A DNA stretch of 64,000 nt from Nitrospinota bacterium (GTDB taxonomy: Bacteria; Nitrospinota; Nitrospinia; UBA9942): positions 9,419 through 73,418 of the forward strand of contig JACQBS010000105.1 in assembly GCA_016194325.1 (NCBI GenBank), read 5' to 3'. Below the pieces are notes generated by a model, which was given only the letters and a program-made list of their open reading frames with translations, did no database searches and was not told the DNA's origin. The number at the start of each line of letters is the position of its first letter. Position 1 is the stretch's first letter. This document shows positions 4,267-59,234 of this stretch, in pieces. Both the position numbers and the translations under genes were made by a program.

Positions 4267-4416
4267 TTTTAAGAGTGAAGCTAAATCTTCAGACTGAAAT
4301 CAAACCTATCCCGTGAAAGATTAGTATTATAGTAAGGATCATTTTCAATTATGCGTCCCCACCTTTTAAGGAACAGGGCTGGGTAAAAGCTACACCAGCC
4401 CTGCATTACATGGCTC

Positions 4417-5415: not shown

Positions 5416-5436
5416 ATTAAGCTGCTGAAGGCAGTT

Positions 5437-9464: not shown

Positions 9465-9466
9465 TT

Positions 9467-10243
9467 TTAAATATAATAAATAACCTGTTTTTCATTCCTG
9501 TAAAAATACCAATACCCTATAAAAAACGATACAAAAGCTACAACTATAGAATTTATCATAAAAGAAAAACTTGGAACCCTCCCGTAAAATATGACTTCTC
9601 TAAAGCTACCTATAATATATACAAGTGGGTTGAGTTTAAATAGCATTTCATATTTTGCAGGAATCATATCCATAGGATATATAATCGGAGTCAGGTAAAA
9701 CCACGCCGTGACAATAATTTCTATCATATGTGTAAAATCCCTGAAGAAGACATTAAGGCATGATATAAACAGGGATATACCTGCTGTAAATAGTATAAGA
9801 TTCAAAAGTAGAATCGGGATTAACATAACAGATGATTGAATCTCAATACGCATAAATACCATTAATATAAAAAGTGGAATTAAAGAAAGAATCATATTAA
9901 CCATATTTGAGAAAATAATAGATAATGGGAAAACTGCCTTTGGAATATATACCTTATTTATAAGATTGGCATTAGATATAAGACTCATAGTTGACATGCT
10001 GAGGGAGTGAGAAAAATAATTCCATGGCAATAAACCGCATAATAAAAATATAGCAAAGTTCTTCATATCAAATCTCATCATATGGGAAAAAACAATAGTT
10101 AATATAATCATCATCATGAGGGGATTCAGCATTGTCCATAAAAAACCCAGAACTGATCTTTTATAGCGGAGCTTTAGCTCCTTAATTACAAGGTTTTTTA
10201 ATAACTCTCTAAATTGATACAGTTCCCTGAGATTTCTTATCAT
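9467..10243 (-). CDS. wzm: ABC-2 type polysaccharide exporter permease Wzm
   Basis: About 260 aa, 6 hydrophobic helices, immediately upstream of wzt. Confidence 0.7.
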   Translation of the reverse strand: MIRNLRELYQFRELLKNLVIKELKLRYKRSVLGFLWTMLNPLMMMIILTIVFSHMMRFDMKNFAIFLLCGLLPWNYFSHSLSMSTMSLISNANLINKVYIPKAVFPLSIIFSNMVNMILSLIPLFILMVFMRIEIQSSVMLIPILLLNLILFTAGISLFISCLNVFFRDFTHMIEIIVTAWFYLTPIIYPMDMIPAKYEMLFKLNPLVYIIGSFREVIFYGRVPSFSFMINSIVVAFVSFFIGYWYFYRNEKQVIYYI

Positions 10244-10244
10244 C

Positions 10245-11870: not shown

Positions 11871-13685
11871 CTAATTTGTTGCTACCTCTTCCATGATGCC
11901 TCGTATTATAACAGGGAGGGTTCTTATATTGAGATTTGCTTTTTTACATTTATTTAGAATCCTATCCATTGTCTCCCTTGATGCAGAAGGAATGGCAATG
12001 ATTGCATCTTCAATATTATATTTTTGCTTTATTTCTTTTAAATTCTCCGTATCCCCCACTACAGGTATTCCATGAATTCTGTATTTCTGTTTTGCCGGGT
12101 CATCGTCTATAAAACCCACCACATTAAAATTAATATCATTGTTGTTCCTTATCTCTCTTAATATCAACTCCCCGGCATCTCCGGCACCAATAATTATTAT
12201 TCTCCTGCCATCACTTTTTCTATGGTCTATCAGATATTCCTTTAAAGACCTTAAGGCAAGCCTGCTTCCACCTATCATTACTACGGTAAGCAGCCAGTCT
12301 GCAATAAAAACTGCCCTTGAATAGTCCTTAAATCTGGCCGTCATTACGATTCCAACCATGATAATAAGAGTGCTCAATGTTGCACCTTTTACTATTGCCG
12401 TCATATCCCTGATACCCACATATCTCCATATACTTTGATAGACACCAAAGTAATAGAAGACTATAAGTTTTACAATTACAACCCATGGAAGTGTATTTAC
12501 AAAAAATGTCAGGTTAGGATTTATCAATCTTCCTTCAAACCTGAGCAGGTATGCAGAGAAATATGCTACAGAGATTAATATCAAATCCATAATAATCTCG
12601 GCAATCCTCCTCCTGCTTAAGTTTATTCCTGATTTACGATACTGCCTCTTTGCAATTATTACCTCAATTTCTTTGTTAGAGCTTGAGTACATTTTCTCAT
12701 CACCGAGAAAAATCCCGAAGAGATAAAGTCCGATTGCCGATAGAACAGCAACAGTCATTATTACAAATGGATTTATACTGAAATAGAGTGCAAGAAGGGC
12801 AAAGAGTATTGAGAACCCATAAAGGGATAATACTACCTGCCTTTCGCTCAAACCTAAGGCTACAAGCCTGTGGGATATATGGTCTTTCCCGCCCTCAGAT
12901 ATGGCTTTTCCCCGCAGTTTCCTTGTAAGTGTTACAAATGTTGTATCAAATATTGGAATACCGAGGACCAGAAGTGGGACTATCATTGTAGCAATAAGAT
13001 TTGATGCCTCTCTCCATGTGCCGATTATTGCTGTAGATGATAATAGGAACCCAAGGAACATGCTGCCGCAGTCGCCCATGAATATCTTTGCCGGGTTAAA
13101 ATTATAAACAAGAAAACCAAGTGATGCCCCCATCAATATAAAAGCCAGCGGGGCAATACTATAGCTGCCTGATTGGACTAAGAATATTCCCAGTGAAGCG
13201 GATGCAATAGCAGCAATACCTGCCGATAGGCCATCCATATTATCAAGAAGATTAAATGAATTTGTTATCCCAACAAGCCATAGAATTGTAAAGGGGATGC
13301 TTATTACAGGATAGGGTATAATTTCTATAACAATACCTGACAATGTAAGTGATGAGGCAATGATAATCTGCCCTACAAGTTTTACCTGTGGATTAAGTTT
13401 TACAATATCATCAATTAAGCCAAGGATAAAGATTGCAGTGGCACTCAATAGGATGGGCAATTTGTAATTAAATTGAGGGGTAAAAAATGTAGTTACAATC
13501 ACCCACGAAGCCCATATAGCAATACCACCCAAAAGTGCCGTAGGCTTTTTATGCCATCTGTCTTCTCTAACCTCTGCAACCTTTCCAAACTTTGAAGACA
13601 AAACCTTTACAAGGGGTGTCAGGATTAATGAGCCTATAAATGATGCAGCCAAAATTAACAGGTATCTTGATATATCTACATTCAT
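11871..13685 (-). CDS. WecA/MraY-family polyprenyl-phosphate HexNAc-1-phosphate transferase fused to a C-terminal Rossmann (NAD/CoA-binding-like) domain
   Basis: DDIVKL, NSFNLLDNMDGLSAG and FMGDCGS motifs of the MraY/WecA family; C-terminal IIIGAGDAGE Rossmann motif. Confidence 0.6.
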   Translation of the reverse strand: MNVDISRYLLILAASFIGSLILTPLVKVLSSKFGKVAEVREDRWHKKPTALLGGIAIWASWVIVTTFFTPQFNYKLPILLSATAIFILGLIDDIVKLNPQVKLVGQIIIASSLTLSGIVIEIIPYPVISIPFTILWLVGITNSFNLLDNMDGLSAGIAAIASASLGIFLVQSGSYSIAPLAFILMGASLGFLVYNFNPAKIFMGDCGSMFLGFLLSSTAIIGTWREASNLIATMIVPLLVLGIPIFDTTFVTLTRKLRGKAISEGGKDHISHRLVALGLSERQVVLSLYGFSILFALLALYFSINPFVIMTVAVLSAIGLYLFGIFLGDEKMYSSSNKEIEVIIAKRQYRKSGINLSRRRIAEIIMDLILISVAYFSAYLLRFEGRLINPNLTFFVNTLPWVVIVKLIVFYYFGVYQSIWRYVGIRDMTAIVKGATLSTLIIMVGIVMTARFKDYSRAVFIADWLLTVVMIGGSRLALRSLKEYLIDHRKSDGRRIIIIGAGDAGELILREIRNNNDINFNVVGFIDDDPAKQKYRIHGIPVVGDTENLKEIKQKYNIEDAIIAIPSASRETMDRILNKCKKANLNIRTLPVIIRGIMEEVATN

Positions 13686-13725: not shown

Positions 13726-14919
13726 TCACATTATCCCCCTGTTCAATTGAAATATAGGAATAAGAATAGCAAGCACTATAAAACCGACAATAATTCCCAT
13801 AATAAGAATCAAGACAGGCTCTAAAAGGATTAATCCCCTTTTCACCTCTGCCTCAAGCTCCTGTCCATATGTCTCAGAAACCTTTAAAAGCACATCGCCA
13901 AGATTCCCCCCCTTTTCTCCAACAGTAATTGTATGGGCAACTATTGGAGGTATGCTGTCCGCCTTCTTGATACTCATGGAAAGAGAGTCGCCTCCTACAA
14001 CATCCTGAATAGCACTATCTATCACCTTATTGAAAACTGCATGGCTTAAAACTCCTTTTGTCATCTCTAATGCCTTTAGCATTGGTACGCCTTCTTTCAA
14101 AAGGCTTCCGAGTGTCCTGGTCAGATTAGTGATATAAAAGTGACTGACAAGTCTGCCAATCCATGGTATTTTTAGGAATAGGTTATCTATCACTTCTTTC
14201 CCGGATGGTATTCTGATATAAAATCTTACCGCCAAGCCAACAGCAATCATGCCAATAATTACTACAAACCAGTAGTATCTGATAAAATTTGTAACCCATA
14301 TAAGTATGAGTGTAATCCAGGGGAGGGTGCTTTTTGTGTCTTCAAAAATCCTCGTTATCTTCGGTATGACAAATATAAATAGAAAGGAGAGGACACAAAT
14401 ACCAACTAAGGTCATGAAAAATGGATATATAATGGCGGAACGGATATCCCTTATAATCTTTGCCCTGCCTTCAAGATATTCTGAGAGCCGTAGCAGGACT
14501 TTATCAAGAGAGCCGCTTGCCTCCCCTGCCGCAACCATCCCCCTATAAATTCCTGAGAATATTCTCGGATAATCACTAAGGGCATTTGAAAGGGAGATGC
14601 CCTCGGCGACCTTATTCTTGATGCCGAAAAGGATTGACTTGAACCTTACATTCTTTTCACCATCTGCCAATACAGAGAGGGCATCGGAAAGGGTTGAACC
14701 TGCCGTTAGGAGTGTGGCTAACTGTCTTGTTGTAAAGGCAATTTCTTGAATTGATATACCTTTGCGGATATACCCCTCAATCCCTATTTCAGATACCTCT
14801 CTCGGATAAAGCCCATCCTTCTTTAATCTTTGAATTGCATCCCTGATACTATCGGCACTTAGATTACCATCAACCTCAATACCGCTTCCGTTATATGCTT
14901 TATATCTGAATGTTGCCAT
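13726..14919 (-). CDS. gspF: Type II secretion / type IV pilus platform protein GspF/PilC
   Basis: About 400 aa with duplicated GspF-type domains and 3 transmembrane segments; adjacent to gspE. Confidence 0.75.
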   Translation of the reverse strand: MATFRYKAYNGSGIEVDGNLSADSIRDAIQRLKKDGLYPREVSEIGIEGYIRKGISIQEIAFTTRQLATLLTAGSTLSDALSVLADGEKNVRFKSILFGIKNKVAEGISLSNALSDYPRIFSGIYRGMVAAGEASGSLDKVLLRLSEYLEGRAKIIRDIRSAIIYPFFMTLVGICVLSFLFIFVIPKITRIFEDTKSTLPWITLILIWVTNFIRYYWFVVIIGMIAVGLAVRFYIRIPSGKEVIDNLFLKIPWIGRLVSHFYITNLTRTLGSLLKEGVPMLKALEMTKGVLSHAVFNKVIDSAIQDVVGGDSLSMSIKKADSIPPIVAHTITVGEKGGNLGDVLLKVSETYGQELEAEVKRGLILLEPVLILIMGIIVGFIVLAILIPIFQLNRGIM

Positions 14920-14924
14920 AAAAT

Positions 14925-14998
14925 AGTGTCAGAGAGTCATAGTGTCAAAGAGTCAAAGATTTTAACTCTGACACCCTGACACTTTGACTCTTTGATAC
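14925..14998. repeat. Intergenic inverted repeat (AGTGTCAAAGAGTCAAAG ... CTTTGACTCTTTGATACT) between gspF and gspE
   Basis: Read directly: about 30 nt arms with an internal duplicated unit. Confidence 0.5.
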
Positions 14999-14999
14999 T

Positions 15000-16547
15000 T
15001 TAATTGATTTGTGTTACCCTTATAATCTCTTCAAGACTTGTAACCCCTGCGGCTGCCTTTTCAAGACCGTCATCCTTAAGTGTCTTCATCCCCTTTGAAA
15101 GGGCATATTCCTTAAGGCTTGCTGAGTCAGGATTCTTTAAAATCACAGAATGCATATTCTGGTCCATAATAAGAAACTCAAATATCCCTGTCCTGCCATG
15201 ATAACCGCTCTTAAAGCATCTTTCACATCCGACAGGTTTCCATAATCTTCGCACATTATATTGTTTAAAGGTAGACATCTCATCTGATTGCGGCGTATAC
15301 TCCTCTTTGCAGTATTGGCACAAGACACGGACAAGCCTCTGTGCAATTACTGCAGAGAGGGATGATGCGACAAGGAATCTCTCAATCCCCATATCAACAA
15401 GCCGTGTGATTGCTGTAGGAGCATCATTTGTATGAAGGGTTGAGATTACGAGATGTCCTGTCAATGAGGCATGGATGGCAATCTCGGCAGTCTCCATATC
15501 CCTGATTTCTCCAACCATAATAACATCAGGGTCTTGTCTTAAGATAGAGCGGAGCCCATGGGCAAAAGTCAGTCCAATTTTTGGATTTACATTGAGCTGT
15601 CCTATCCCCTTTAACTGATATTCAACAGGGTCTTCTACAGTTATAATATTTCTTTTGGCAAAGTTTATACGATTTAAAGCTGAGTAAAGGGTTGTGGTCT
15701 TTCCAGAGCCGGTTGGTCCTGTGACAAGGATAATCCCGCTATTCCTTGAAAGGAGTGAATCCATCATTTCAACCTGCCCTATATTAAACCCTAACCCTTC
15801 AAATTCTATAATCCCCCCCTTACGATCAAGGAGTCTCAATACTACCCTCTCTCCAAATGATGTAGGGATAACCGATACCCTCACATCAATATCCTTCCCT
15901 GCTATAAGGAGTCTGATCCTGCCATCCTGCGGGAGCCTCTTCTCTGCTATATCAAGTCCCGCCATGACCTTCACCCTTGAGATGGTCGCCTCCTGAATAG
16001 TCTTTGGCGGGGAGAGGACAGGATATAAGACACCATCAACCCTGAATCTAACCTCAACTACCTTTTCATAAGGCTCAATATGAATATCACTTGCCCTCTC
16101 TTTCACAGCCTGAAAGAGGAGTGAATTTAGAAGCTTTATAATGGGGGCTTCATCTACAAGCTCAAGGAGGTCCTTCGGCTCTTCCCACTCTGTGGCAAGG
16201 GTATCAAGACTCTCACTGCTGAGCCCGTCTATTACCTCCTGTGCAGAGCCTGAGAGCCTGTCATAGAACCTGTGAATGGCATTTAAGATATTCTCCTGCC
16301 GTGTAAAGACAGGGGTTACAGGGTTAAATAGGAATTTCTCTACATCATTTAGGGCAAAAATCCCCTTTGGGTCTGCCAATGCCACCAGCACCTTTCCATT
16401 CTCTTTTCTTAAAGGTATGATGAGATTCCCCTTTGCAAATGAGAGGGGTATTCTTTCAATAAAGGCAGGGTCAATATCTTCACTATTAATTTCATCTATG
16501 TAGGGGAAACCGTGGGCTTTAATTATGCTAAATAATTCATCATTCAT
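15000..16547 (-). CDS. gspE: Type II secretion ATPase GspE (PilB/GspE family)
   Basis: Walker A GPTGSGKTTT, Asp and His boxes, tetracysteine CxxC...CxxC zinc motif. Confidence 0.85.
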   Translation of the reverse strand: MNDELFSIIKAHGFPYIDEINSEDIDPAFIERIPLSFAKGNLIIPLRKENGKVLVALADPKGIFALNDVEKFLFNPVTPVFTRQENILNAIHRFYDRLSGSAQEVIDGLSSESLDTLATEWEEPKDLLELVDEAPIIKLLNSLLFQAVKERASDIHIEPYEKVVEVRFRVDGVLYPVLSPPKTIQEATISRVKVMAGLDIAEKRLPQDGRIRLLIAGKDIDVRVSVIPTSFGERVVLRLLDRKGGIIEFEGLGFNIGQVEMMDSLLSRNSGIILVTGPTGSGKTTTLYSALNRINFAKRNIITVEDPVEYQLKGIGQLNVNPKIGLTFAHGLRSILRQDPDVIMVGEIRDMETAEIAIHASLTGHLVISTLHTNDAPTAITRLVDMGIERFLVASSLSAVIAQRLVRVLCQYCKEEYTPQSDEMSTFKQYNVRRLWKPVGCERCFKSGYHGRTGIFEFLIMDQNMHSVILKNPDSASLKEYALSKGMKTLKDDGLEKAAAGVTSLEEIIRVTQIN

Positions 16548-16565
16548 AAAAAATTATAAAAATTT

Positions 16566-16675
16566 GCCACAGAGGCACGGAGACACGGAGAATTTAAAAT
16601 TCCAAATAACAAATCCCAAATAACAAATAAATTCCAATTTTTCAATTTCTAAATTACAAACTGCGTCTCTGTGGC
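16566..16675. repeat. Intergenic hairpin element (GCCACAGAG ... CTCTGTGGC) with an internal AATTCCAATTTTTCAATTTCTAAATT heptad-like tract
   Basis: Read directly. Confidence 0.45.
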
Positions 16676-18681
16676 TAATCAGGTTTTTGTCCCTCCTTCT
16701 CTGAAACACCACCCTTAAATTTCTCCTCAGTCTTAATTTTAAGGGTGTCAAGGTCACTAAAATCTTTTACTATTGATGGAGTGAGATAAATGAGAAGGTT
16801 TATCTTTTGTCTCTGTGTTGAGGAGTATTTAAAGAGCCATCCTAAGAGCGGGATGTCTCCGAGGAGCGGAACCTTTGTTACATTCTTTATCTCTTTATCC
16901 TGTATCAATCCACCAATGACTATTGTCTGCTCATTCTTTACAACGACTGATGTCTTTGCAGAACGTTTTGTAGTAATAATATCCTTTGCCTGTCCCCCTG
17001 CCTGAGAAGTAGGGGCAACAGCAGAAATCTCCTGATATATATCAAGCTTTACATAATCCCCCTCGCTTATCTGGGGCTTTATCTTTAAAGTGATGCCAAC
17101 ATCCTTTCTCTCAATGGATTGAAGTATCGGCTGGTTAGTAGTGGTTGTCTCTCTCTCAAACTTACTCAAGAAAGGGACATTCTCACCAACAATAATCTCA
17201 GCCTCTTTATTATCGCTGGTAAGAATATGGGGAGTGGAAAGGACATTTATAGCATCCCTAAATTGTTTAAGGCTGAAGAGGGCTGCAAAACCAGGGGCAG
17301 TCAGATTGTATGATGTTCCATCCCCTCTTGTTACAGGGACAGTCACAAAATTGCCCATCCCTCCCACAGTTAACCCTGCCATACCGCCGATTATATTCTG
17401 AACCTGCGTTGAATCAACAGTCCCGACACCTCCAATCGCTACAGGCTCACCTCTATCATTTTTTGCAGAAGCCCTCCATCTTGTCCCCATATCAAGTGCC
17501 TTATCAATAAAGACCTCTGTTATCATTGCCTCCACAAAAACCTGCCTTGGCCTTCTGTCAAGTTTTTTGATTACCTGTAAAAGCGTCTGGTAATCTTCAG
17601 GGGACGACATGACAATCAGGGAATTAGTCGCCTTATCAGGAGTTATAGCAATCCTACCTGTAAATTCAGCCGTCGTTTGTGACGGTGGTACGCCTGGCGG
17701 CGGAGGTGAAGACCGTGTCAATCCCTCAAGAACCTTTGAAATCTCGGCAGCCTCCGCATTCTCAAGATAATAGACATTTATTCTGGCAGAGGTCTCCGGC
17801 GGCGGGACATCCAATATGGCAATGAGCCTTTTATACTCCTCTCTCTCGGTAGAAGAACCAAAAAGGATAATTGCATTTAGTCTCGTATCAGGAATTATCC
17901 TCCCCTCAACAGGTCGGGGGGGCTGTCCCTGCGTTATCCCGCCTTTTCTGTACTGCCCTCTTTCCCTTAATACTTTGCTGATATTCTCCGCCTGGGCATA
18001 TTTAATATAAACAATCTCGGATTCACGTTGTTCGTCCTCTTTGTCTATGCCTTTTAAAATCTCCAGTATCTTTTCTATATTGAGGGCAGTATCTACCACC
18101 AATAGGGCATTCCCTGGGCCAAAGGCTGAGGCATAACCATCTTTTGAAACAAGAGGCTGGATAAATGTAACAGCATCCTGACCTGCTATGAAATTTAATG
18201 GAATGAGCCGGACAATATAGGTATCATTCACCTTTATCTTCTCTGTCTCTCTTACTATTTCAGTTCCGCTCTGTCTCGCCATTGCCGATGGAATTATCTT
18301 ATAGGCATTCCCGGTAGTAATAAGAGTAAATCCCTTTAGCTCCAATAAAGATGTAAACAGATTAAACGCCTCATCAGCAGAAAGTTTTGATGGTGCGATT
18401 ACTGTAATCTTTCCCTTCAGCCTTTCGTCATAGATAAAGTTTTTCCCTGTTAGCTCGCTTATAAATTTGACGAGTGTAGAGATATCCACATCAACAAGAT
18501 TTATTGTAATCTTATTATCCTTCTTAAGAATTTCCTGAGATTTTTCCCTTGATGTAATATTCTTTGGAGTCTCTTCAGCAAATGGAGTCTCTGCCATAGA
18601 GACAAAAAAGAGGATTATGAATATCTTAAAAACCATTTTATTTGTAATCTGTTTCATTGAAAATTCCCTTTTATAAAACAC
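16675..18681 (-). CDS. gspD: Secretin GspD/PilQ family
   Basis: Signal peptide, N0/N1-type repeats, C-terminal secretin motif VPLLGDIPLLGWLFKYSS...LLIYLTPSIV. Confidence 0.8.
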   Translation of the reverse strand: MFYKREFSMKQITNKMVFKIFIILFFVSMAETPFAEETPKNITSREKSQEILKKDNKITINLVDVDISTLVKFISELTGKNFIYDERLKGKITVIAPSKLSADEAFNLFTSLLELKGFTLITTGNAYKIIPSAMARQSGTEIVRETEKIKVNDTYIVRLIPLNFIAGQDAVTFIQPLVSKDGYASAFGPGNALLVVDTALNIEKILEILKGIDKEDEQRESEIVYIKYAQAENISKVLRERGQYRKGGITQGQPPRPVEGRIIPDTRLNAIILFGSSTEREEYKRLIAILDVPPPETSARINVYYLENAEAAEISKVLEGLTRSSPPPPGVPPSQTTAEFTGRIAITPDKATNSLIVMSSPEDYQTLLQVIKKLDRRPRQVFVEAMITEVFIDKALDMGTRWRASAKNDRGEPVAIGGVGTVDSTQVQNIIGGMAGLTVGGMGNFVTVPVTRGDGTSYNLTAPGFAALFSLKQFRDAINVLSTPHILTSDNKEAEIIVGENVPFLSKFERETTTTNQPILQSIERKDVGITLKIKPQISEGDYVKLDIYQEISAVAPTSQAGGQAKDIITTKRSAKTSVVVKNEQTIVIGGLIQDKEIKNVTKVPLLGDIPLLGWLFKYSSTQRQKINLLIYLTPSIVKDFSDLDTLKIKTEEKFKGGVSEKEGQKPD

Positions 18682-21891: not shown

Positions 21892-22047
21892 GAACACGAA
21901 TTACACTAATATACGAATGGCACGAATAAAAAAAGTCAAAGGTCAAAATGCAAAAATCAAATAGAGGTATTTATTGTTAAAATAATTCCATAATTTTAAT
22001 CTTTGATTTCCATTTGTGTAATTTGTCCATTCGTGTTATTCGTGTTC
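21892..22047. repeat. MITE/REP-like element (GAACACGAAT ... ATTCGTGTTC terminal inverted repeats) followed by a T-run; likely doubles as the terminator of the upstream gene
   Basis: Read directly; related to the 18691-18785 element. Confidence 0.5.
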
Positions 22048-22067
22048 AAGTTTTTTGTTTTTTTATT

Positions 22068-22580
22068 ATGTCACTACTTGATATTATTAAGGGCAGGAGA
22101 AGCATAAGGGAGTTTAAGAAGAAAGAAATCCCGGAGGATGTAATTGAGAAATTGATAGATGCAATAATCTGGGCTCCGAGTGCTGGAAATCTGCAATCAA
22201 GATTCTTTTATTTTGTATTTAATCCGGAAATAAAGAAAAAACTCGTAAGGGCTGCATTTGACCAGGAGTTTATAGCATTCGCCCCTCTTTCAATAATCGG
22301 CTGCTGTGATTACCGCATCAGCCAGAGATATGGAAATAGAGGGAAGGAATTATACACAATACAGGATGTTGCAGTAAGCATACAAAACCTCATGCTCACA
22401 GCTTATGAGCAGGGGCTTGGGAGTGTATGGGTCGGTGCATTCAGGGAAGAAGATGTAAGAGAGATTCTCAACATGCCACCGCACTTAAGGCCTGTTGCCA
22501 TTGTCCCAATCGGTTATCCTGACGAAGAACCTCTCCCGCCGGAAAGGGTATCAAGAGACAAGGCAATAAAGATTGTTTAA
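22068..22580 (+). CDS. Nitroreductase family protein
   Basis: RRSIREF and APSAGNLQ motifs; start moved to the Met at 22068 because the upstream part of the tracked ORF overlaps the repeat element. Confidence 0.75.
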   Translation: MSLLDIIKGRRSIREFKKKEIPEDVIEKLIDAIIWAPSAGNLQSRFFYFVFNPEIKKKLVRAAFDQEFIAFAPLSIIGCCDYRISQRYGNRGKELYTIQDVAVSIQNLMLTAYEQGLGSVWVGAFREEDVREILNMPPHLRPVAIVPIGYPDEEPLPPERVSRDKAIKIV

Positions 22581-22942
22581 GATGATGTGAGGTGAACTTT
22601 AACTATGGTTTCCGTTTAAGAAAAGAGGGATAAAAAGCAGCCTGTCTCCTTTTTTTAGATGCTAAAGGGTTATGGAAAAAGACATACAGAGAATATGTCA
22701 GAAATTGAGCAGACTTTTGACCTCTTTAGTTCCTTTGGGATATTGAGTATGAACACTTATCCTCTTTTCTGTCTATCACTCAAAAAGTAATGATAGTTGT
22801 TCATTACAAAAAAAAACCAGACAAATTCCAGAATAGCATTAGACAAATTACAGGATAACCCTTTACAATTTTACAAGCGTGTTTTACTCTGCCTTGGCGT
22901 GTTTTAGCGTGTTTTTTGTCATATTATTGACATCAAAAGGCT

Positions 22943-23710
22943 TCAAAAGTTCATTATGAGTAATTCTGTAACTTTTTGTTTTTTATCTACCCCTCCAATA
23001 TTATACATTGTTTCAACTTTTTTGATATTAAAATCCTTATATAGTTCTCTTATCTCTTTCGTATTATTAATAGACATTATAAATTTACCTGAGATTGACT
23101 TCAAGATGTCTCTTATCTTAACGAAGTCATCCTTATAGAATATGCCTTTTCCATAATATCCTTCACAGTCATAATAGGGAGGATCGAGGTAAAAAAATGT
23201 GTGAGCCTTATCGTATCGTTCTATCAATTTTTCATAATGCATATTCTCAATAAATACCCTTACAAGTCTGAGATGGGCAGCAGAAAGTTCCTCCTCTATT
23301 CTTAATAAATTAAGTCTTGATGGTCTAACTGTTGAGCTTGTAAATGTTGGATTATCTACTCTGCTGGCATATCCTGTCTTCAAGAGATAATAGAACCTTA
23401 CTGCCCTCTGTATGTCTGTCAGTGTGCTGGGATTTTCATCTTTAAATCTTTGAAACTCATCTCTTGCAACCAGTATCCACCTAAAAAATCTTATAAATTC
23501 GTCTAAGTGGTGTTTTACTACCCGATAAAGAGTCACAAGGTTTTTATTGATGTCATTTAGAACTTCAACATCAGACTCGTCTTTTTTAAACAGTAGCCAT
23601 GCTGCACCTGCGAATACTTCACAGTAACAGGTATGTTTTGGAATTAGCGGAATAATCTTATTTGAAATGATAGATTTCCCTCCTAAATACGATAAAAAAC
23701 TTTTTCTCAT
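22943..23710 (-). CDS. Dam-family (D12 class) N6-adenine DNA methyltransferase
   Basis: N-terminal FLSYLGGK, motif I EVFAGAAW, C-terminal DPPY catalytic motif. Start set at MRKSF (23710), which avoids overlap with the RT. Confidence 0.75.
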   Translation of the reverse strand: MRKSFLSYLGGKSIISNKIIPLIPKHTCYCEVFAGAAWLLFKKDESDVEVLNDINKNLVTLYRVVKHHLDEFIRFFRWILVARDEFQRFKDENPSTLTDIQRAVRFYYLLKTGYASRVDNPTFTSSTVRPSRLNLLRIEEELSAAHLRLVRVFIENMHYEKLIERYDKAHTFFYLDPPYYDCEGYYGKGIFYKDDFVKIRDILKSISGKFIMSINNTKEIRELYKDFNIKKVETMYNIGGVDKKQKVTELLIMNF

Positions 23711-23723
23711 TGTATCTCCCTCC

Positions 23724-24746
23724 CTAATTTTTGCTAAATGTAATACCACCAAAAACTCTTTTCACTACATTATAGCTATTAGAATGTTTTACATGCCCAA
23801 GCCATGAGGTTATAGATTGTTTAATCTTTTCGAGTGTTATTTTATTGTGTTTATATAACTCCACAAACTTTTTGAGTTTTCTCCGCATTCTTATGAAGCT
23901 CCTTTTTCTTAAGAGCCTATGAGTTGGCCATGTGCGATATCCTACAAAGTCAACCCCATGAGAAATAGGAAAAACAGAGGTTTTATAATTTAGCTGAAGC
24001 CGTAATGTGTGCATTAAAAAGTCACCTATTTCTACTTTCCATAAGTGCAGTTGCTTTTTATTGCTGTGTAACAACACAAAGTCGTCCATATACCTGATAT
24101 AAAATTTAACCTGCAGTTTCTCCTTTACGAAATGGTCAAGCTCATTCAGATACACATTTGCAAATAACTGACTTGTCAGATTTCCTATTGGGAGTCCCTT
24201 ATCTCCATCCGCACTATCTACAATCTCATCAATAAGCATTAGTGTCCTTTTGCATCTTATTGTCCTTCTAATTATGTTCTTCAATGCCTCATGATCTACG
24301 GAGGGAAAGAATTTCGATATATCGGCTTTCAGACAATAAACGGTATTCCATTTTCGTTGCGCCCTCCTTAGAAACTCTACAAGCCTATTAGATGATGCAT
24401 GTGTACCTTTTTTACTTCTACACGCATAAGAGTCATTAATAAACTTCTTTTCAAGAAGTGGCTCTATAACAGTGCATAAGGCATGGTGGATAACTCTATC
24501 CCTAAATGGTAATGCCGAAATCACTCTTCTCTTTGGTTCATGTATAACGAACTTCCTGTATTGCCCTGTTTTGTAACCACCATTCATCAATTCACTCTGT
24601 AAAACAAACAATTCCTCCTCTATATTGCTACTGAATTCTAACACCTCCTTCTTATATCGCTTACAGCGTCTCGCTTTGAGGTATGCATTATAGAGATTGT
24701 CAAAGGTATATATCTTTTCAAACAAGGCATTATATGTTTTAGGCAT
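23724..24746 (-). CDS. Diversity-generating retroelement (DGR) reverse transcriptase
   Basis: RT motifs 1-7 including YMDD (YIRYMDDFVLL) and the DGR-specific motif 4 LPIGNLTSQLFANVYL. 340 aa, no maturase or endonuclease domain; lies next to the TR. Confidence 0.85.
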   Translation of the reverse strand: MPKTYNALFEKIYTFDNLYNAYLKARRCKRYKKEVLEFSSNIEEELFVLQSELMNGGYKTGQYRKFVIHEPKRRVISALPFRDRVIHHALCTVIEPLLEKKFINDSYACRSKKGTHASSNRLVEFLRRAQRKWNTVYCLKADISKFFPSVDHEALKNIIRRTIRCKRTLMLIDEIVDSADGDKGLPIGNLTSQLFANVYLNELDHFVKEKLQVKFYIRYMDDFVLLHSNKKQLHLWKVEIGDFLMHTLRLQLNYKTSVFPISHGVDFVGYRTWPTHRLLRKRSFIRMRRKLKKFVELYKHNKITLEKIKQSITSWLGHVKHSNSYNVVKRVFGGITFSKN

Positions 24747-24758
24747 ACAATCTCCTTG

Positions 24759-24950
24759 TCATTTAAATTTTCTTTTGATTGATACATCTAAATCAGTAAC
24801 TCCTCCCTGATTCAAATTAATCTCCAAGATCAATTTGCCTGTGAAATTTTTAACATCCTCTTTTATAACTTTATATTTATTCATATCCTCAATACATCTA
24901 ATCAAAGTTTTCTTCCATTCTTTTTCTTTACCCTCCATTGTGTCCTCCAA
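24759..24950 (-). CDS. Small hypothetical protein between the TR spacer and the RT
   Basis: 63-aa ORF only; no recognizable motif. Confidence 0.2.
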   Translation of the reverse strand: MEDTMEGKEKEWKKTLIRCIEDMNKYKVIKEDVKNFTGKLILEINLNQGGVTDLDVSIKRKFK

Positions 24951-24959
24951 AAATAAAAA

Positions 24960-25255
24960 AACCCAAACTAAAGCCGAAAACGGCTTTTGGGGTCTGATAG
25001 CTCTCCGATAGAAGTTATCAGCTAACCAACCGTTAACAGCTTTACTTTGGGTTTAATAGCTCTCCACAATGGAGTTATTAACTAACCAACTAAATTATGC
25101 GGCCAGTGCAATTTTATGGACTTCCCCTACTCATTGCACATAGCCTCTACAATTTTTGCCTCTGGCTTTCGCCTCGGCAGGGATTAAGAGCCTGACTGTA
25201 TTGCTGTCACTGGTGATAACTCCGTAGAGTCATCATCTCTTAAAAGTTTTAACAC
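24960..25255 (-). ncRNA. Putative structured DGR RNA segment downstream of the TR (duplicated about 47-nt hairpin units plus an AAAGCCGAAAACGGCTTT hairpin)
   Basis: Two about 80 percent identical units at 24989-25036 and 25049-25095, each internally palindromic; hairpin at 24971-24988. Confidence 0.35.
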
Positions 25256-25367
25256 AGTCACAGGCGAAGCGAGCGCCAATATTCGTATTCACATTCCACG
25301 GATAGTTGTTCAGATTGACGCACCGAGAACCAGCGATTACGCCATTATTCCAGTTGCCGCCAGCAAT
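25256..25367 (-). repeat. DGR template repeat (TR), 112 bp
   Basis: Matches 25767-25878 at 104 of 112 positions. All 8 mismatches lie at adenines of this copy on the minus/coding strand. It is non-coding and sits directly after the avd stop. Confidence 0.85.
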
Positions 25368-25371
25368 GCTC

Positions 25372-25704
25372 TTAACCCACACTTTTAATCCATCCTCCCA
25401 ATAACCTCCCTATTTCCGCTATAAGCTTACCGCTATGCTCATAACTCTTATGTGATAAATGTTTCCTGTCATGAGCAAACCTTATCAAAAACTTTAATTC
25501 CTCTAATTTTACATCAATGTCATACATCAGGGGCTTTTTATTCCTACTTTTATTAGTTCTGATAATTCCCCTTGCAATATCAAGCACACAGTTTTTAATA
25601 TGTGTGCATAGGACAAACTTTTCATACTTTGGAAATTTATCAACGATAGGGAAAAAATATAATGCAAAGTCATAAACCTTCTGATATATAATCAAATTTT
25701 CCAT
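25372..25704 (-). CDS. avd: Accessory variability determinant (Avd-like) small basic helical protein
   Basis: 110 aa, basic, predicted helical bundle; canonical position between the target gene and the TR. Confidence 0.6.
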   Translation of the reverse strand: MENLIIYQKVYDFALYFFPIVDKFPKYEKFVLCTHIKNCVLDIARGIIRTNKSRNKKPLMYDIDVKLEELKFLIRFAHDRKHLSHKSYEHSGKLIAEIGRLLGGWIKSVG

Positions 25705-25758
25705 GTAATCATTATAGTATATCCCCCCCTATATTCAAAAAATATTTCAGAGAACAGA

Positions 25759-26841
25759 TTACAGAGAGTCACAGGCGAAGCGAGCGCCAATAGTCGTATT
25801 CACATTCCACGGATAGTAGTACAGATTGACGCACCGAGAACCAGCGATAACGCCACTACTCCAGTCGCCGCCAGCAAGCAACATAACCAACTCAATGTTC
25901 GAATACATATATAGCTGACCCGCATTCATGCCCGGCATTACATCATAATAATTCCACCCGACAGTACCATCTGGTCTTATTATGAAGCAGTCAATCCACT
26001 CCCACACATTACCAACGCAGTCTACAACATTGAGAAGACTAATTGCATTAGCTACATAACCTGTGTTTTGTCTACCCGTGTTAGTTGTTGCAGACCACGC
26101 ATTTACATTATCTCCATTATTACCCTGTGGTGAGCCGTGGGCTATCTGCAGCCATTCTGCATGGGTCGGAAGCCTTTTTCCCGACCTGCGGGCCATTTCA
26201 ATAAAATTGTAACCAGACAATCCTTCTGTCCCTGTCAGTGGTATAGCATTATAGATACTTTTAGCTGTGCCGGTAAGTATGGGAGAACCGCTTCCTGCTG
26301 CGAAAGTAATCGCCTCATCAACTGAGGAGAGGTAAATATCCACCCATACACCGTTACCCAAATATACCATACCCTCCGGGCTGCAGCGTGGTTTATGGCA
26401 TAAATCCCAGACAGAATTTGGAACCACTACGCCGCTTGTTACATCTGCGACTGTAATACTATTTCTTTTCCTCCCATAGTGGAATCCGCCGATTCTACGG
26501 GAGTTCGTGGTGGTATATCCACTCGGAGCAGTAGAGTTTGCTGATATGAGCAATAATCCGTTGTCAGTGCCATTATCACAGAGATATATATAGTAGTTTA
26601 TGCCGAGGGTTAATACACCTGTATCAAGTGTCGTTACTTCGGTGTCTGTTGCAAACAGATATGCTTTCCGTGTAGAGCCACTTATTAATGAGAGGATAGT
26701 GTCTGCTTTGACTACGACCCCATTCCCTGTTGCGTTTGCCTCAAGATATTTATTTGAGATTCCCGGTCTTATATCAAGCGGGCGCATTAAAAAGACATCA
26801 TTTATTGGATATGCTGGATCATTTTTCCATATTAGTGACAT
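25759..26841 (-). CDS. DGR target protein: phage receptor-binding / tail-fiber-associated protein with C-terminal C-type-lectin (FGE-like) fold carrying the VR
   Basis: C-terminal HAEW...GNVWEWI...GGDW...RCVNLYYYPWNVNTTIGARFACD matches the FGE/CLec DGR-VR scaffold. The VR occupies the last 40 codons. Confidence 0.8.
   Translation of the reverse strand: MSLIWKNDPAYPINDVFLMRPLDIRPGISNKYLEANATGNGVVVKADTILSLISGSTRKAYLFATDTEVTTLDTGVLTLGINYYIYLCDNGTDNGLLLISANSTAPSGYTTTNSRRIGGFHYGRKRNSITVADVTSGVVVPNSVWDLCHKPRCSPEGMVYLGNGVWVDIYLSSVDEAITFAAGSGSPILTGTAKSIYNAIPLTGTEGLSGYNFIEMARRSGKRLPTHAEWLQIAHGSPQGNNGDNVNAWSATTNTGRQNTGYVANAISLLNVVDCVGNVWEWIDCFIIRPDGTVGWNYYDVMPGMNAGQLYMYSNIELVMLLAGGDWSSGVIAGSRCVNLYYYPWNVNTTIGARFACDSL
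25767..25878 (-). repeat. DGR variable repeat (VR) with GC-rich IMH at its 3' end
   Basis: Partner of the TR. The substitutions convert TR AAC/AAT (Asn) codons to TAC and similar. The GGCGCTCGCTTCGCC segment is conserved in both copies; the flanking 3' sequences differ (IMH vs IMH*). Confidence 0.85.
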
Positions 26842-26853
26842 GGTTTCCTCCTT

Positions 26854-27171
26854 TTATAATTGGTTAATAAGGTTTTCGAGTTCTGCTTTTGTAAATCCCA
26901 TTTGCAGAAATCTTGCATTTGGATTATCCACAAACTCAAAACAGATATATTTTGTCTGCCCTGCAGTATCTATTTCTGTTATAACCTTTTCATTCGAGAG
27001 TGGTATGTATGTAGATGCCACCTCCGATTTAAAACTCCAGATTTTCTCATCCGAAAACAAATCCTGCAGCTTCTTTTTAAGCTCTGCACTGTCAATCTCT
27101 CCAGTAAGTGCAAGGGCATGACAGGTCTCAACATCTACCCTTGTGTTTAAAACGCTTGGTATTCCTCTCAT
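26854..27171 (-). CDS. Hypothetical phage protein between the tail fiber and the DGR target
   Basis: ORF only. Confidence 0.3.
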   Translation of the reverse strand: MRGIPSVLNTRVDVETCHALALTGEIDSAELKKKLQDLFSDEKIWSFKSEVASTYIPLSNEKVITEIDTAGQTKYICFEFVDNPNARFLQMGFTKAELENLINQL

Positions 27172-55747: not shown

Positions 55748-55980
55748 TTAAGTATTCTCGGCCGCTCCCTTAGCTCCCTATCTATAAGGCAGTAAAGTGG
55801 GCTCCTTCCTCTTTTCCCAATCTGTTTAATGAACCCTTCCTTCTTATAAATACACATAATCAGCTTTACATAGAGCCTCTTAATCCCTGTAACCTGTGCA
55901 ATTTCATTGACTGTCCAGATTGGGGAATACCTCCACGCCCTCCATATCCTGTCTGCTTTTTCACCATATTTCTCCCTCAT
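55744..55980 (-). CDS. Small winged-HTH-like protein
   Basis: 78 aa, basic. Confidence 0.3.
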   Translation of the reverse strand: MREKYGEKADRIWRAWRYSPIWTVNEIAQVTGIKRLYVKLIMCIYKKEGFIKQIGKRGRSPLYCLIDRELRERPRILK

Positions 55981-56852
55981 AACACCCTCACTATGTCCAT
56001 CGTTACTACATGCTGATTAGAGGTATTCATTATTCTTACAATTGAATGTGCGTCCCTTACCACATATCTAAAATCCCCTCCCGACCTCTTCCATATTGCC
56101 TTTGCACATTCGGCATCGAGGTCAATCCCTGCTGCAAGCCTGAAATACGCCGAGACATCCGATAGTGTTATCTCCTCAAAGGCGACTGTCTGACGAACAC
56201 GACTCTTTAATCTTCTTTCTCTATCCATATACCTCACAACAGCCTCCTCACCTATGAGGACAATCGGGCATAAACACCGTTCATTAAGCCCCCGCAGCAT
56301 CTCTACAGATTGCAGGTGCATCTTATCTGCCTCATCTATAAGTATTATCTTCCTCTTACTCCTTGTCGCCTTTTCAATCTCCATCAGACAATCACGGAAT
56401 CTAAAAGGGCGGATTCCGTTCAGCTCATAGGCTATCTCTCTGGACACATCTGTGAGGGAAAATCCTGTGATGAATTGGACATACACTGCATCGGGGTTAT
56501 TCACCGCATAATGCACCGCAGCCTTTGTCTTCCCCCTGCCTGCTGTCCCTACAACAACACCAAAAGATGAGGTCAAATCCCCCTCCGATAGCTCATCACA
56601 GAGGGAATTGAATTTTCTGACATTGCTTGTCTGAATAAAGACATCTGCCCTCACCCTGAAATTTTTTTCTTGCAATCTGTATCCATGTTCTGATAGTTTA
56701 TTGACAATATCTGCCTCAATCTCAGAGGTATTACCACTGTATTTGCCCCTGATAATGAGGCTTATGGTGGACTCATCATAGCCTGTGAGCTTGGCGACTC
56801 TGGCATTGATGAGTTCACCTTTATACTGCTCCATTAACTTCTTTAATTGCAT
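55977..56852 (-). CDS. MuB-like AAA+ transposition target-DNA activator
   Basis: Walker A GTAGRGKTKAA and Walker B ILIDEAD; N-terminal HTH; follows the transposase gene. Confidence 0.7.
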   Translation of the reverse strand: MQLKKLMEQYKGELINARVAKLTGYDESTISLIIRGKYSGNTSEIEADIVNKLSEHGYRLQEKNFRVRADVFIQTSNVRKFNSLCDELSEGDLTSSFGVVVGTAGRGKTKAAVHYAVNNPDAVYVQFITGFSLTDVSREIAYELNGIRPFRFRDCLMEIEKATRSKRKIILIDEADKMHLQSVEMLRGLNERCLCPIVLIGEEAVVRYMDRERRLKSRVRQTVAFEEITLSDVSAYFRLAAGIDLDAECAKAIWKRSGGDFRYVVRDAHSIVRIMNTSNQHVVTMDIVRVL

Positions 56853-56910: not shown

Positions 56911-57180
56911 TCACCCCCTTTCATTCATGGATTTGTAAAGCCTCTCAAACTCCTCAAATCTTACCTTCTCTGTCTCGTCCATCCCTGCCTCATACCGCCT
57001 CATAAACTCCTCATCTGCCTCAGTGAGATGGAATCCACCAAGATGATCCTCAAGCAGCGACTGATAGCGGTCAACCTCATATTTATATGTCCCCCTCTTT
57101 GCCCTGAGTTTTATGGGTCTTTGTTCTGTTGACTCTGCCACAATTCTTTCAGTTTCTTTTTTTAACTCCTCATCCGTCAT
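56911..57180 (-). CDS. Small acidic hypothetical protein
   Basis: ORF only. Confidence 0.25.
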   Translation of the reverse strand: MTDEELKKETERIVAESTEQRPIKLRAKRGTYKYEVDRYQSLLEDHLGGFHLTEADEEFMRRYEAGMDETEKVRFEEFERLYKSMNERG

Positions 57181-59234
57181 CTGTCTTCTGTCTTCTGGCT
57201 TCTGACTATCTTCTGGCTGCTATATTCAATGACTCCAGGTACCGGTGCGGTAAGTTTTTTGTAATGCTCTCTGACCTTTTCCATCATCTCCTTTTTCCAC
57301 TTCATAAGCTCCGTTACAAGCTCATTGTCCTTCATTGAGCTTTCAGGAACCTTGCGGAGTGTAATTGCCTCTCCGCCGGGCTTTACTGCAAAGGCTTTTT
57401 CAAAATCGTAAGGGTCATACCTTACCTCAACCCTCGTGCCATCCGCTAAATCCCATAGACCACATTCAAGGTTCAAACCCTCATAAAGTTTCTTCTCTAT
57501 CCATATCCGCCCACGATTAACAGTCCTCTCCTCCCTTTTTAAGAGGACAAAATCAAGCTCATGCTCCGGCATATACACCGGCTTAAACCCTTCATTCTTA
57601 ACCGCATACAAAAGCTCCTCCATCGGAGTTCTCCCTAATGCTGAGTGTCGGCGATTTGAATAAACCCCCACTCCCTCTATCGCCTTTAAAATAAACTCCT
57701 CCGGGGTGAGGAGCTTGTTTTCTTTAATGAGGTTTTTAAGCCTTCTATCTGATAATGCCTTCTCCTCAGATGTCCCTTTAAGCTCTCTGATATGTCCTGG
57801 AACGCCGAGGTCTAAAAGTATTCGCTCAAAACTCCCAAAAAACCTTTCAATTAGTTTTGCCTTAGCATTATAAGGTCTTGCATATCGATGCCATACCTCT
57901 GGAGTATCTACCGTCTCTATAATCTTTCCTTCGTCTTCCCCCTCGATGGCATATTTGTTATCCTTTGTCCTGTATAACTCCACAATATCTTTACTCTGTA
58001 TCCCATAAGCCTGCAGGTCATTCCCCACAAGATTGAAAAACCTTGAAGTCTCAGGCTTTCCATTATCCGTATATGCCTTTTGAAATTTTCCAAAATGTCC
58101 TATCCCCATTCTCATGGAAAGCCCTATCATGTATGAGTTGTAACGGTCAGCAAGACTGCATCCGTAGATATTTCTTGTGCGGAGGTCAAGCCAGAAATAT
58201 CCCTCCATCCTGAATATTTTGTCTATCTCCCTGTCATGCACCCAGAAATCAAACCTGTGCTGGTCTCCAACGATACATTCAAAGGGTGCAAGGTCTTTGT
58301 ATTGCCTGATAATATAGAAGATATTGTCAAGGGCACGGCTGCCGCCACGGGCATACTTTTCAAGGAGAGGATTGAGTCGGGTGAAATGCTCATAAGCGGA
58401 AGATTCAGAGCCGATTTTCCAGCTCTCCTTTTCTGCCTTTGATGCCACAGCCTGATAGACAAACCGTTTTGAAGCATCACCGGCTTCACGGATAGCCTTG
58501 AGATATACACCCTGCATATATAAGAGCGCCTCTGGATCCCATGCTGTCGTCCCTTTCTGCTTTCTCTCCTTATTAAAATATTGCGAGCCTTGCTCCTTAT
58601 ACCCTTTAATATCACCGCAAAGTGTCTGGTATGTTATGCCTGCCTCTACCGCACATTTCCTTTTCCACTTACCTTTTTTATACCCCTGCGGCACGGAGAG
58701 CGCCTTTTGCACCAGCTCCATCCTCTCATAATCAATCTTGCATACCGTTATCTGCCCCTCACAATTTCCCCCTTTATCTACCTTCATCTTTTCAATCTCC
58801 CACTGTGCCTGTGATGAGAGCCTTTCTTTAATATGTTCTGAGAGTAGCTTTGCAGTTTCTTGATTTTTCTGAATCCACTTCAACTGGGCATCGGGAGGGA
58901 GAGAGGATAGGGCAATTCGGTATTGCTTACCACCGTTGCCATTAACTTTGATTGCCTTATATTTACCTTCTTTACAGCCCTTCAGTACTGCTTGAAGTGT
59001 AATACCTAAAAATTCTTCTACTTCTTTCCGTGTCAAATATATGTCATCATTTTGAGCATGATTTTGGTTGTAACCTTTGGTCAAAATTGCCTGATTTTCG
59101 GTTGTAACCTTACCATTTTGGTTGTAACCTTGGTTGTAACCTTCAGCTAAAAGGTTACAACCTTCTTTTTCCCCTATCCCGTCATTAATTTGACTTTTCA
59201 TAACCCCCCTCTTTACTGTCAGGGATAATGCCAT
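57177..59234 (-). CDS. Mu-type DDE transposase (MuA-like)
   Basis: rve-type core with CIVGDQHRFD, YTDNGKPE and IERFFGS blocks (DDE); N-terminal DNA-binding region; 685 aa. The 5' end overlaps a decamer repeat array, so the true start may lie downstream. Confidence 0.75.
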   Translation of the reverse strand: MALSLTVKRGVMKSQINDGIGEKEGCNLLAEGYNQGYNQNGKVTTENQAILTKGYNQNHAQNDDIYLTRKEVEEFLGITLQAVLKGCKEGKYKAIKVNGNGGKQYRIALSSLPPDAQLKWIQKNQETAKLLSEHIKERLSSQAQWEIEKMKVDKGGNCEGQITVCKIDYERMELVQKALSVPQGYKKGKWKRKCAVEAGITYQTLCGDIKGYKEQGSQYFNKERKQKGTTAWDPEALLYMQGVYLKAIREAGDASKRFVYQAVASKAEKESWKIGSESSAYEHFTRLNPLLEKYARGGSRALDNIFYIIRQYKDLAPFECIVGDQHRFDFWVHDREIDKIFRMEGYFWLDLRTRNIYGCSLADRYNSYMIGLSMRMGIGHFGKFQKAYTDNGKPETSRFFNLVGNDLQAYGIQSKDIVELYRTKDNKYAIEGEDEGKIIETVDTPEVWHRYARPYNAKAKLIERFFGSFERILLDLGVPGHIRELKGTSEEKALSDRRLKNLIKENKLLTPEEFILKAIEGVGVYSNRRHSALGRTPMEELLYAVKNEGFKPVYMPEHELDFVLLKREERTVNRGRIWIEKKLYEGLNLECGLWDLADGTRVEVRYDPYDFEKAFAVKPGGEAITLRKVPESSMKDNELVTELMKWKKEMMEKVREHYKKLTAPVPGVIEYSSQKIVRSQKTEDR
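59066..59162. repeat. Five copies of the decamer GGTTGTAACC/GGTTACAACC (dyad-symmetric) within 100 bp
   Basis: Read directly at 59066, 59100, 59120, 59132 and 59153. Confidence 0.7.

Follow-up and report, generated by a model that had tools for sequence, protein, structure and literature searches.

A diversity-generating retroelement on the minus strand of the window

The stretch of DNA analysed here, hereafter the window, is 64,000 nucleotides long and comes from a metagenome-assembled genome (MAG) of a Nitrospinota bacterium (assembly GCA_016194325.1, contig JACQBS010000105.1, positions 9,419 to 73,418 of the forward strand). All positions are numbered from its first letter, unless a locus of another genome is named. 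The window carries a diversity-generating retroelement (DGR); in prokaryotes and their viruses, no other natural system that hypermutates proteins in a targeted way is known. An initial annotation, made from the letters alone, had recognized a DGR repeat pair; this reading is supported, since no defining part of a DGR is missing or damaged and all of them follow one another in the canonical order along the minus strand. The locus is very probably a complete DGR of the type of Bordetella phage BPP-1, diversifying the receptor-binding tip of an Mtd-like tail-fibre protein in a Mu-like prophage. Its core features, in the direction of the coding strand, are the following:

25759..26841, minus strand: DGR target gene, 360 aa, Mtd homologue by Pfam, PDB and PHROG matches
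25767..25878, minus strand: variable repeat (VR), the last 38 codons of the target (codons 322-359 of 360)
25748..25766, minus strand: VR 3' flank (CTCTGTAATCTGTTCTCTG, with the target stop codon), unlike the flank of the template repeat
25372..25704, minus strand: avd (accessory variability determinant), 110 aa, bAvd / DivGenRetAVD
25368..25378, minus strand: avd 3' end (GGGTTAAGAGC, with the avd stop codon), upstream strand of an 11-bp duplex with positions 25191..25181 of the spacer RNA
25256..25367, minus strand: template repeat (TR), the intergenic copy, with 25 adenines, 18 of them in nine AAY codons
25252..25265, minus strand: TR 3' end, or IMH* (GCCTGTGACTGTGT; IMH, initiation of mutagenic homing), template strand of a predicted duplex with the spacer RNA
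25101..25257, minus strand: spacer (Sp) RNA just 3' of the TR, related to Rfam RT-14 but divergent
25181..25201, minus strand: Sp strand ATACAGTCAGGCTCTTAATCC, which joins the TR 3' end through its 5' part and the avd 3' end through its 3' part
23724..24746, minus strand: DGR reverse transcriptase (RT), 340 aa, Pfam RVT_1

The repeat pair and its adenine bias

The initial annotation had described a 112-bp repeat with 104 matching positions at offset 511. Realignment gives the same figures for the copies at 25256-25367 and 25767-25878. The eight mismatches were likewise claimed to be strictly adenine-specific, and tabulating them by template base, the check that had been named beforehand, found no non-adenine mismatch inside the repeat. 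At all eight positions (plus-strand 25282, 25307, 25310, 25338, 25345, 25348, 25355 and 25367) the 25256-25367 copy has a T on the plus strand, which is an A on the minus, coding strand. That copy holds 25 adenines and 87 other bases on the minus strand; 8 of the former and 0 of the latter differ. The probability that eight random mismatches would all fall on the 25 adenines is C(25,8)/C(112,8) = 2.3e-6. Counting position 25367 as part of the repeat is arbitrary, because it is terminal and the copies diverge at non-adenine positions too just beyond it; without this border position, seven of seven mismatches lie at adenines over 111 positions (P = 1e-5).

The substitutions on the minus strand comprise two A>C, three A>G and three A>T changes, in agreement with the kinds first reported, including the conversion of AAC to TAC. 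Six of the eight lie in AAY codons (AAC>GAC, AAT>AGT twice, AAC>TAC twice and AAT>ACT), and the remaining two are ATT>CTT and a silent GTA>GTT, so that seven of the eight alter the amino acid. Faint similarity between the two copies extends a few bases beyond both ends (139 nt at 86%), as is usual for TR/VR pairs, whose 5' border is fuzzy and whose 3' border is of the IMH/IMH* kind. A search of the window for the TR core that left every adenine position free (N) and tolerated up to three mismatches found the two known copies only, and no further copy or second VR; the same search in shuffled sequence gave 0 matches.

Could the tail gene simply have had its 3' end duplicated, with random divergence producing this pattern by chance? 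The mismatches number just eight, with one at the repeat border, and this is what speaks for such an origin. It is effectively refuted by the probabilities given above, by the location of the intergenic copy exactly between an Avd gene and a DGR-type RT gene, and by homologous loci, which show the same adenine bias with 9-26 mismatches each. The assignment of the intergenic copy as TR and of the copy inside the open reading frame (ORF) as VR was right, with avd, the RT and the Mtd-like target all in place.

The TR begins 4 nt past the avd stop codon. Besides the 18 adenines in AAY codons, the other seven lie in the codons ATT, GTA, ATC, TAT, ACG, ATT and GAC. Because of this concentration in AAY codons, about 1e14 peptides can be reached without a stop codon: no A>N change in the TR can create one, and the computed number of possible peptides is about 1.6e14. 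Neither TR nor VR contains a GATC site (0 in each). A 49-aa ORF with a GTG start (25233-25382) overlies the TR and reads it in the frame of the VR. It is the sole ORF over the TR and is probably one of the two NCBI protein records between RT and Avd.

Target, Avd and reverse transcriptase

The target protein matches Pfam mtd_2nd (3e-24) and, at residues 214-356, the FGE-sulfatase/C-type-lectin (CLec) fold family (4e-7). Its similarity to the solved Mtd structures 1yu4, 1yu0 and 2iou (E 4e-27) runs over residues 37-360 and covers the VR region, and it belongs to the tail proteins of PHROG 11262 (1e-63). The gene is situated just downstream of the tail-fibre (tail-collar), P2_I (P2 gpI-like) and baseplate J genes. 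The avd product is identified by Pfam bAvd (1e-32) and by the NCBIfam equivalog DivGenRetAVD (cut-off 80), for which it scores 121.4 bits; it also resembles the Avd chains solved in PDB 4dwl and 8ub7_B. Avd adjoins the TR in about 74% of DGRs (PMC5758913).

The best solved homologue of the RT is 8ub7_A (E 7e-72), followed by group II intron RTs at 1e-19. Chain 8ub7_A is taken to be the BPP-1 RT, since the bRT residues named in PMC7826257 agree with its numbering and Avd was deposited with it. DGR RTs carry the signature [I/V/L]GxxxSQ instead of QGxxxSP, and R74 of bRT promotes adenine mutagenesis (PMC7826257). The window RT has IGNLTSQ at residue 187 and YMDD at residue 219, and keeps the equivalent of R74.

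Between the target stop and the avd start lies a run of seven C (25723-25729; G on the coding strand). A promoter scan gave one sigma-70-like match upstream of avd, TTGAAT-16-TATAAT at 25738..25711, and the region contained fewer matches than its shuffles. The seven-C run falls within the spacer of this match, where the homopolymer could vary in length; the match itself is not above chance.

Related loci and diversity in a sister lineage

Relatives of the RT were used to fetch 53 loci (L001-L053). In 45 of these, a TR/VR-like pair was found with at least 85% of its mismatches at adenines of the copy proximal to the RT, and in 26 the mismatches lay there exclusively. The RT clade is thus a DGR clade. 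The closest RT relative, L024 (71% identity), keeps the order avd-TR-spacer-hairpins-ORF-RT-Dam, of which the hairpins, the small ORF and the Dam-family gene are described below. Its target (3852-4940) is a C-type-lectin/FGE-sulfatase protein without the second domain of Mtd and with marginal similarity to the target in the window. The window RT is 45-48% identical to those of cultured Vibrio, Pseudoalteromonas and Aeromonas phages, and Bordetella phages are also among the matches. At the DNA level, the cassette (23700-26900) had no match in 50,697 deposited phage genomes, and a search of contig collections with the conserved spacer block matched only the L024 contig.

Evidence that such elements diversify in nature comes from a sister lineage reached through a 59-aa ORF that lies between spacer RNA and RT. 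Its members L056, L058 and L063, from different metagenomes, have identical TRs, which align with the window TR without gaps (80 of 104 positions identical) and have most adenines at the same positions. Their VRs depart from this TR and from one another at 19 columns, and all of these are TR adenines (19 of 23 adenines; P about 2e-17). A partial VR in L062 (its last 56 nt) brings five further differences, four of them at TR adenines and the fifth at a TR thymine. This variation shows that the machinery of the clade diversifies in nature, but not that the copy in the window is active at present.

Some further features of the related loci are worth recording. In a set of species-representative genomes, the nearest RTs (49-52% identity) were binned with DPANN archaea, Gracilinema and Calditrichota; L001, L002 and L004 are Woesearchaeota and uncultured archaeon MAGs. 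This suggests either a wide horizontal spread of the clade or phage contigs that were mis-binned into MAGs. A Saprospiraceae MAG (L016) has one TR and two VRs, about 1.7 kb and 4 kb off on either side (repeat segments 5292-5418, 6988-7114 and 11151-11277). In both VRs nearly all mismatches lie at TR adenines, which makes the element a two-target DGR.

The spacer RNA and its long-range duplexes

The region directly 3' of the TR matches Rfam RT-14 (RF02921) over its whole length (model positions 1-144 of 144; 38.5 bits, E 0.001). Sub-threshold matches occur at the same site in L024 (31.5) and L056 (30.8), and above-threshold matches from the last TR bases onward, directly 3' of the TR, were found in L005 and L001 (63.4 and 59.6 bits, respectively). 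Folding the spacers of four lineages to a consensus gave 38 pairs, with 97% of cells paired and compensatory changes in eight pairs, whereas sliding the 3' partners by 1-3 columns as a control left only 36-42% pairing. This independent consensus supports the three helices of the RT-14 model.

Two duplexes connect the spacer with the sequence upstream of it. The first joins the 3' end of the TR to the spacer (25265..25252 with 25201..25190) and forms helices 1 and 2 of the consensus fold as well as helix P1 of the RT-14 model. It is 100% paired in four lineages and nearly invariant: eight of ten pairs never vary, and one pair is changed on both sides. The second is the 11-bp duplex between the avd 3' end and the spacer, for which segments chosen by eye, positionally homologous in every locus, have 98.5% of cells paired over six lineages, with compensatory changes in 8 of 11 pairs. 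The spacer strand that takes part in both (25181..25201) is the most conserved block of the spacer and is unpaired in the Rfam RT-14 consensus.

In the BPP-1 ribonucleoprotein, cryo-EM revealed a template:primer duplex and an 11-bp duplex of avd and Sp, named 'cPRT Stop' (bioRxiv 10.1101/2023.10.23.563531; summary in PMC12875486). The avd:Sp duplex described here, which covariation supports, is the counterpart of the latter. By analogy, the TR:Sp duplex would be the template:primer duplex.

Weinberg et al. 2017 described RT-14 among their RT-associated motifs and assigned no function to it. In the same study RT-10 was linked to the BPP-1 spacer and the other RT motifs were speculated to serve other DGRs (PMC5737381). 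Here, RT-18 was found to fill the spacer between TR and RT in L033 (2724-2801) and L035 (2778-2855). It appears that at least RT-10, RT-14 and RT-18 are DGR spacer RNAs, position and covariation supporting a placement of RT-14 as a probable DGR spacer, and position one of RT-18. Two other RNA candidates in this part of the window were rejected as chance matches: a fluoride riboswitch at 25002-25070 (13.6 bits against 34) and SgrS at 26302-26397 (18.2 bits against 37).

Proposed mechanism and activity of the window copy

Taken as a DGR of the BPP-1 type, the locus would work as follows. A transcript comprising the avd 3' end, the TR and the spacer would fold, and its spacer would pair with two segments upstream, the 3' ends of the TR and of avd. 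The RT-Avd complex would self-prime from the spacer and copy the TR into complementary DNA (cDNA), with misincorporation opposite the 25 template adenines. The cDNA would then replace the VR at the 3' end of the target, guided by the GC-rich 3' segment that TR and VR have in common (GGCGCTCGCTTCGCC) and by the flank specific to the VR. By analogy with BPP-1, the cDNA would be primed close to position 25190, with templating from about 25266 onward, 3' of all observed adenine substitutions. We infer the priming site, the integration of the cDNA and the activity of the window copy from such analogy. A motif like TCTGTAATCTG recurs past the VR in L024, L056 and L064, where the TR-side flank is different in each, and the VR 3' flank is, by analogy with BPP-1, a candidate for the distal part of the IMH.

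Several observations weigh against this interpretation. Only 8 of the 25 adenines (32%) differ in the VR; misincorporation by bRT in vitro is reported to be roughly 50% (PMC7826257), i.e. somewhat higher, and selection on the tip could account for the difference. The RT-14 score of the spacer RNA (38.5) is lower than the gathering score (48.1). Variants of the VR were looked for by cluster look-up in a collection of 15 billion proteins, where target, RT and Avd are all singletons. The TR core with N at the adenines gave 0 other matches in viral (IMG/VR) and JGI metagenome contigs. Finally, a GC-rich hairpin (e.g. CCCCGCGAAGCGGGG) stands about 45 nt past the VR in L024, L056 and L064, as in BPP-1 (L056 4230-4245; L024 4975-4997; L064 about 240-255), and no stable hairpin of this kind was found after the window VR, where the sequence is merely AT-rich and its fold insignificant: the 71 nt there fold like shuffles (z = -0.9).

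Part of these observations would suit a formerly active DGR that is now silent or crippled, with the VR differences as fossils of past retrohoming. The lack of a stable hairpin past the VR, unlike the sister lineages, the modest share of adenines substituted, the absence of variant VRs from all collections searched, and a terminator-like hairpin between TR/spacer and RT all point this way. Against it, the target, avd, the small ORF and the RT are all intact with catalytic and signature motifs, every duplex of the spacer RNA is preserved, and the terminator is also kept in lineages that demonstrably diversify. Moreover, the 0 of 87 non-adenine differences imply that the last retrohoming was recent relative to the background mutation rate. 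Silencing of the element is on balance improbable.

A different concern is that the VR of the MAG is a consensus or chimera of coexisting variants, so that the eight substitutions would come from no single phage genome. Hypervariable sites do collapse in MAG assemblies, and a separate Logan assembly of the same run (L054, 2329 nt) is interrupted among the hairpins that lie 3' of TR and spacer, about 100 nt before the small ORF starts. The same target protein was nevertheless obtained from both the NCBI and the Logan assemblies, and a chimeric VR would itself point to DGR activity. Such an artefact is very unlikely, and a complete BPP-1-type DGR remains the preferred explanation of the locus.

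A rare module between spacer RNA and reverse transcriptase

The gap between TR and RT measures 509 nt, versus 130-163 nt in the closest RT relatives without the module described here (L025, L002, L003 and L005). It contains, 3' of the spacer RNA, the following features:

25049..25087, minus strand: hairpin A, 58.2 bits with hairpin model R1, consensus GGTTAG-stem-CTCC-loop-GGAG-stem-ACCC
24990..25027, minus strand: hairpin B, 51.9 bits with model R1, same consensus as hairpin A
24949..24993, minus strand: terminator-like hairpin with a T run (24987..24970 in the consensus scan), between the hairpins and the small ORF
24759..24938, minus strand: 59-aa ORF between Sp RNA and RT, candidate accessory or regulatory gene

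The tandem hairpins are 38-39 nt long, and eight copies of them share 13 pairs, 98% paired, four with compensatory changes. Model R1 matches both hairpins in L069 and L070, loci outside its training set, and had no match elsewhere in the window or in the other DGR loci searched. In the terminator, the outer stem RCCC...GGGY and the T run are kept in four lineages, across which R covaries with its Y, the first pair alternating between A-T and G-C. Hairpin B, in its basal helix (GGU:RCC), and the terminator, in its basal stem (RCCC:GGGY), draw on the same RCC(C) bases. Such an overlap of hairpin B and terminator bases just upstream of the small ORF and the RT is an arrangement typical of attenuators.

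The 59-aa ORF is a real gene, as it is conserved (54-73% identity in other lineages) with a proportion of nonsynonymous differences (pN 0.15-0.28) far below that of synonymous ones (pS 0.66-0.84). Searches of Pfam, NCBIfam and PHROG gave 0 matches, and no HRDC or other Pfam domain was detected in it. Its AlphaFold2 model (pLDDT 64.5, pTM 0.30) shows one helix and a beta hairpin and is too weak for a fold search. A Com/Mom-like reading, after the right end of Mu, was tried and rejected: the protein has one conserved cysteine, whereas Com is a four-cysteine zinc finger.

Searched exhaustively with a profile, 1.84 billion representative proteins gave four matches. In the two close ones (L069 and L070) the ORF lies downstream of Avd/TR and just before the next gene, which is cut by the contig end and presumably is the RT. 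One distant match (P0011) has a weak portal-like match on one side and capsid genes on the other, and is uninformative on function because it has no DGR link; the neighbourhood of the other (P0010) is too short to interpret. In every close relative the ORF lies between avd/TR and RT, and in the sister lineage its stop codon overlaps or abuts the RT start. Hairpins and ORF co-occur in 6 of the 6 lineages found, and among the DGR loci searched only in the DGR subclade of the window.

From this co-occurrence it may tentatively be proposed that the hairpins, the terminator and the 59-aa ORF form a previously undescribed accessory or regulatory module of DGRs, although we regard this as doubtful. 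The 59-aa protein might bind the hairpins and set read-through into the RT in the manner of an attenuator-type switch, or it might become part of the RT-Avd-RNA particle.

The prophage and its surroundings

The DGR lies at the right end of a Mu-like contractile-tailed (myovirus) prophage of about 39 kb (window 22800-61700) in the Nitrospinota MAG. Features outside the core of the element include:

22943..23752, minus strand: Dam-family N6-adenine DNA methyltransferase (Pfam MethyltransfD12, TIGR00571), overlapping the RT 3' end by about 29 nt
55977..56852, minus strand: MuB-like ATPase (AAA_22/TniB)
57177..59234, minus strand: MuA-type transposase (Pfam Mu-transpos_C)
59805-60710: helix-turn-helix and S24 repressor genes, divergent

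The further phage genes encode Portal_Mu, terminase, capsid E, sheath, tape measure, baseplate J, P2 gpI-like and tail-collar fibre proteins, and a 32-nt inverted repeat, 88% identical, is found near both prophage ends (22845-22876 and 61651-61682). With MuA, MuB, repressor, portal, head and contractile-tail genes all found, the prophage is a transposable Mu-like phage. It is flanked by host genes for a nitroreductase (22014-22580) and an H+-pyrophosphatase (62945-63754). Identical proteins are recorded as MBI3584178, MBI3584181 and MBI3584182 (Nitrospinae/Nitrospinota MAG) and in run SRR12113410.

The Dam-family methyltransferase gene follows the RT in every related locus that reaches past the RT (L024, L056-L063). 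It may be part of the DGR system or simply a gene of the right end of the phage. The host flank also contains, at 13726-18681, genes for a secretin (GspD-like), an ATPase of the type II secretion/type IV pilus kind (GspE/MshE-like) and a platform protein (GspF-like), adjoined by a large glycosyltransferase cluster (5437-13685). The GspD/E/F-like genes and the glycosyltransferase cluster possibly specify surface structures.

Comparison with known systems

DGRs are a well-known kind of system, of which tens of thousands have already been catalogued, and another Mtd-type phage DGR, in a Mu-like prophage of Nitrospinota, adds little by itself. Three points of modest value go beyond this. First, the RT-14 RNAs, and RT-18 elsewhere, which were described but left unassigned, may now be placed as DGR spacers. 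Second, the avd:spacer stop duplex of BPP-1 is recovered by covariation in a spacer resembling RT-14 and not RT-10. Such covariation, together with the retained TR:Sp pairing in another spacer family, supports the generality of the priming and stopping mechanism. Third, the rare conserved combination of ORF, hairpins and terminator would, if true, be a candidate for a new accessory or regulatory layer.

Among deposited phage genomes, the closest RTs (45-48%) belong to phages vB-Vv-ZX4290, VP585, ACA1 and phiARM81mr. In vB-Vv-ZX4290 (L065), the sole one of the four that was examined, target, Avd and RT are likewise found at the extreme right end of a genome of about 37 kb, but no small ORF is annotated between Avd and RT and model R1 has no match. 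The likeness to RT-14 consists in a full-length match that starts at the last TR bases, and the avd 3' end pairs with the very conserved block that the model shows as 'unpaired'; the window, L024 and L056 differ from it in scoring below the gathering score of 48.1. Within the classification of Wu et al. 2018 (PMC5758913), the locus resembles architecture B1, with the core order avd-TR-RT and the target upstream. The accessory genes of that study are HRDC, MSL and CH1; MSL (112-283 aa) and CH1 (160-169 aa, and only where avd is lacking) are far larger than the 59 aa of the window ORF.

The comparison with the DGR of Bordetella phage BPP-1 (mtd-avd-TR-brt) brings out both differences and a common plan. 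The spacer is RT-14-like here and RT-10 in BPP-1 (PMC5737381). The gap between TR and RT is 509 nt here and about 140 nt in BPP-1, the greater length being due to the insertion of two hairpins, a terminator-like hairpin and the 59-aa ORF. Also unlike BPP-1, the window lacks a stable hairpin past the VR, a Dam methyltransferase gene follows the RT, and the element resides in a Mu-like contractile-tailed prophage of Nitrospinota. Common to both are the gene order, the VR at the 3' end of the target and a TR rich in AAY codons. Homology extends to the target and Mtd, to the RT and bRT (with R74 and [I/V/L]GxxxSQ) and to Avd and Bbp7, and in both systems the spacer forms two duplexes, one with the 3' end of the TR and one, of 11 bp, with the 3' end of avd.

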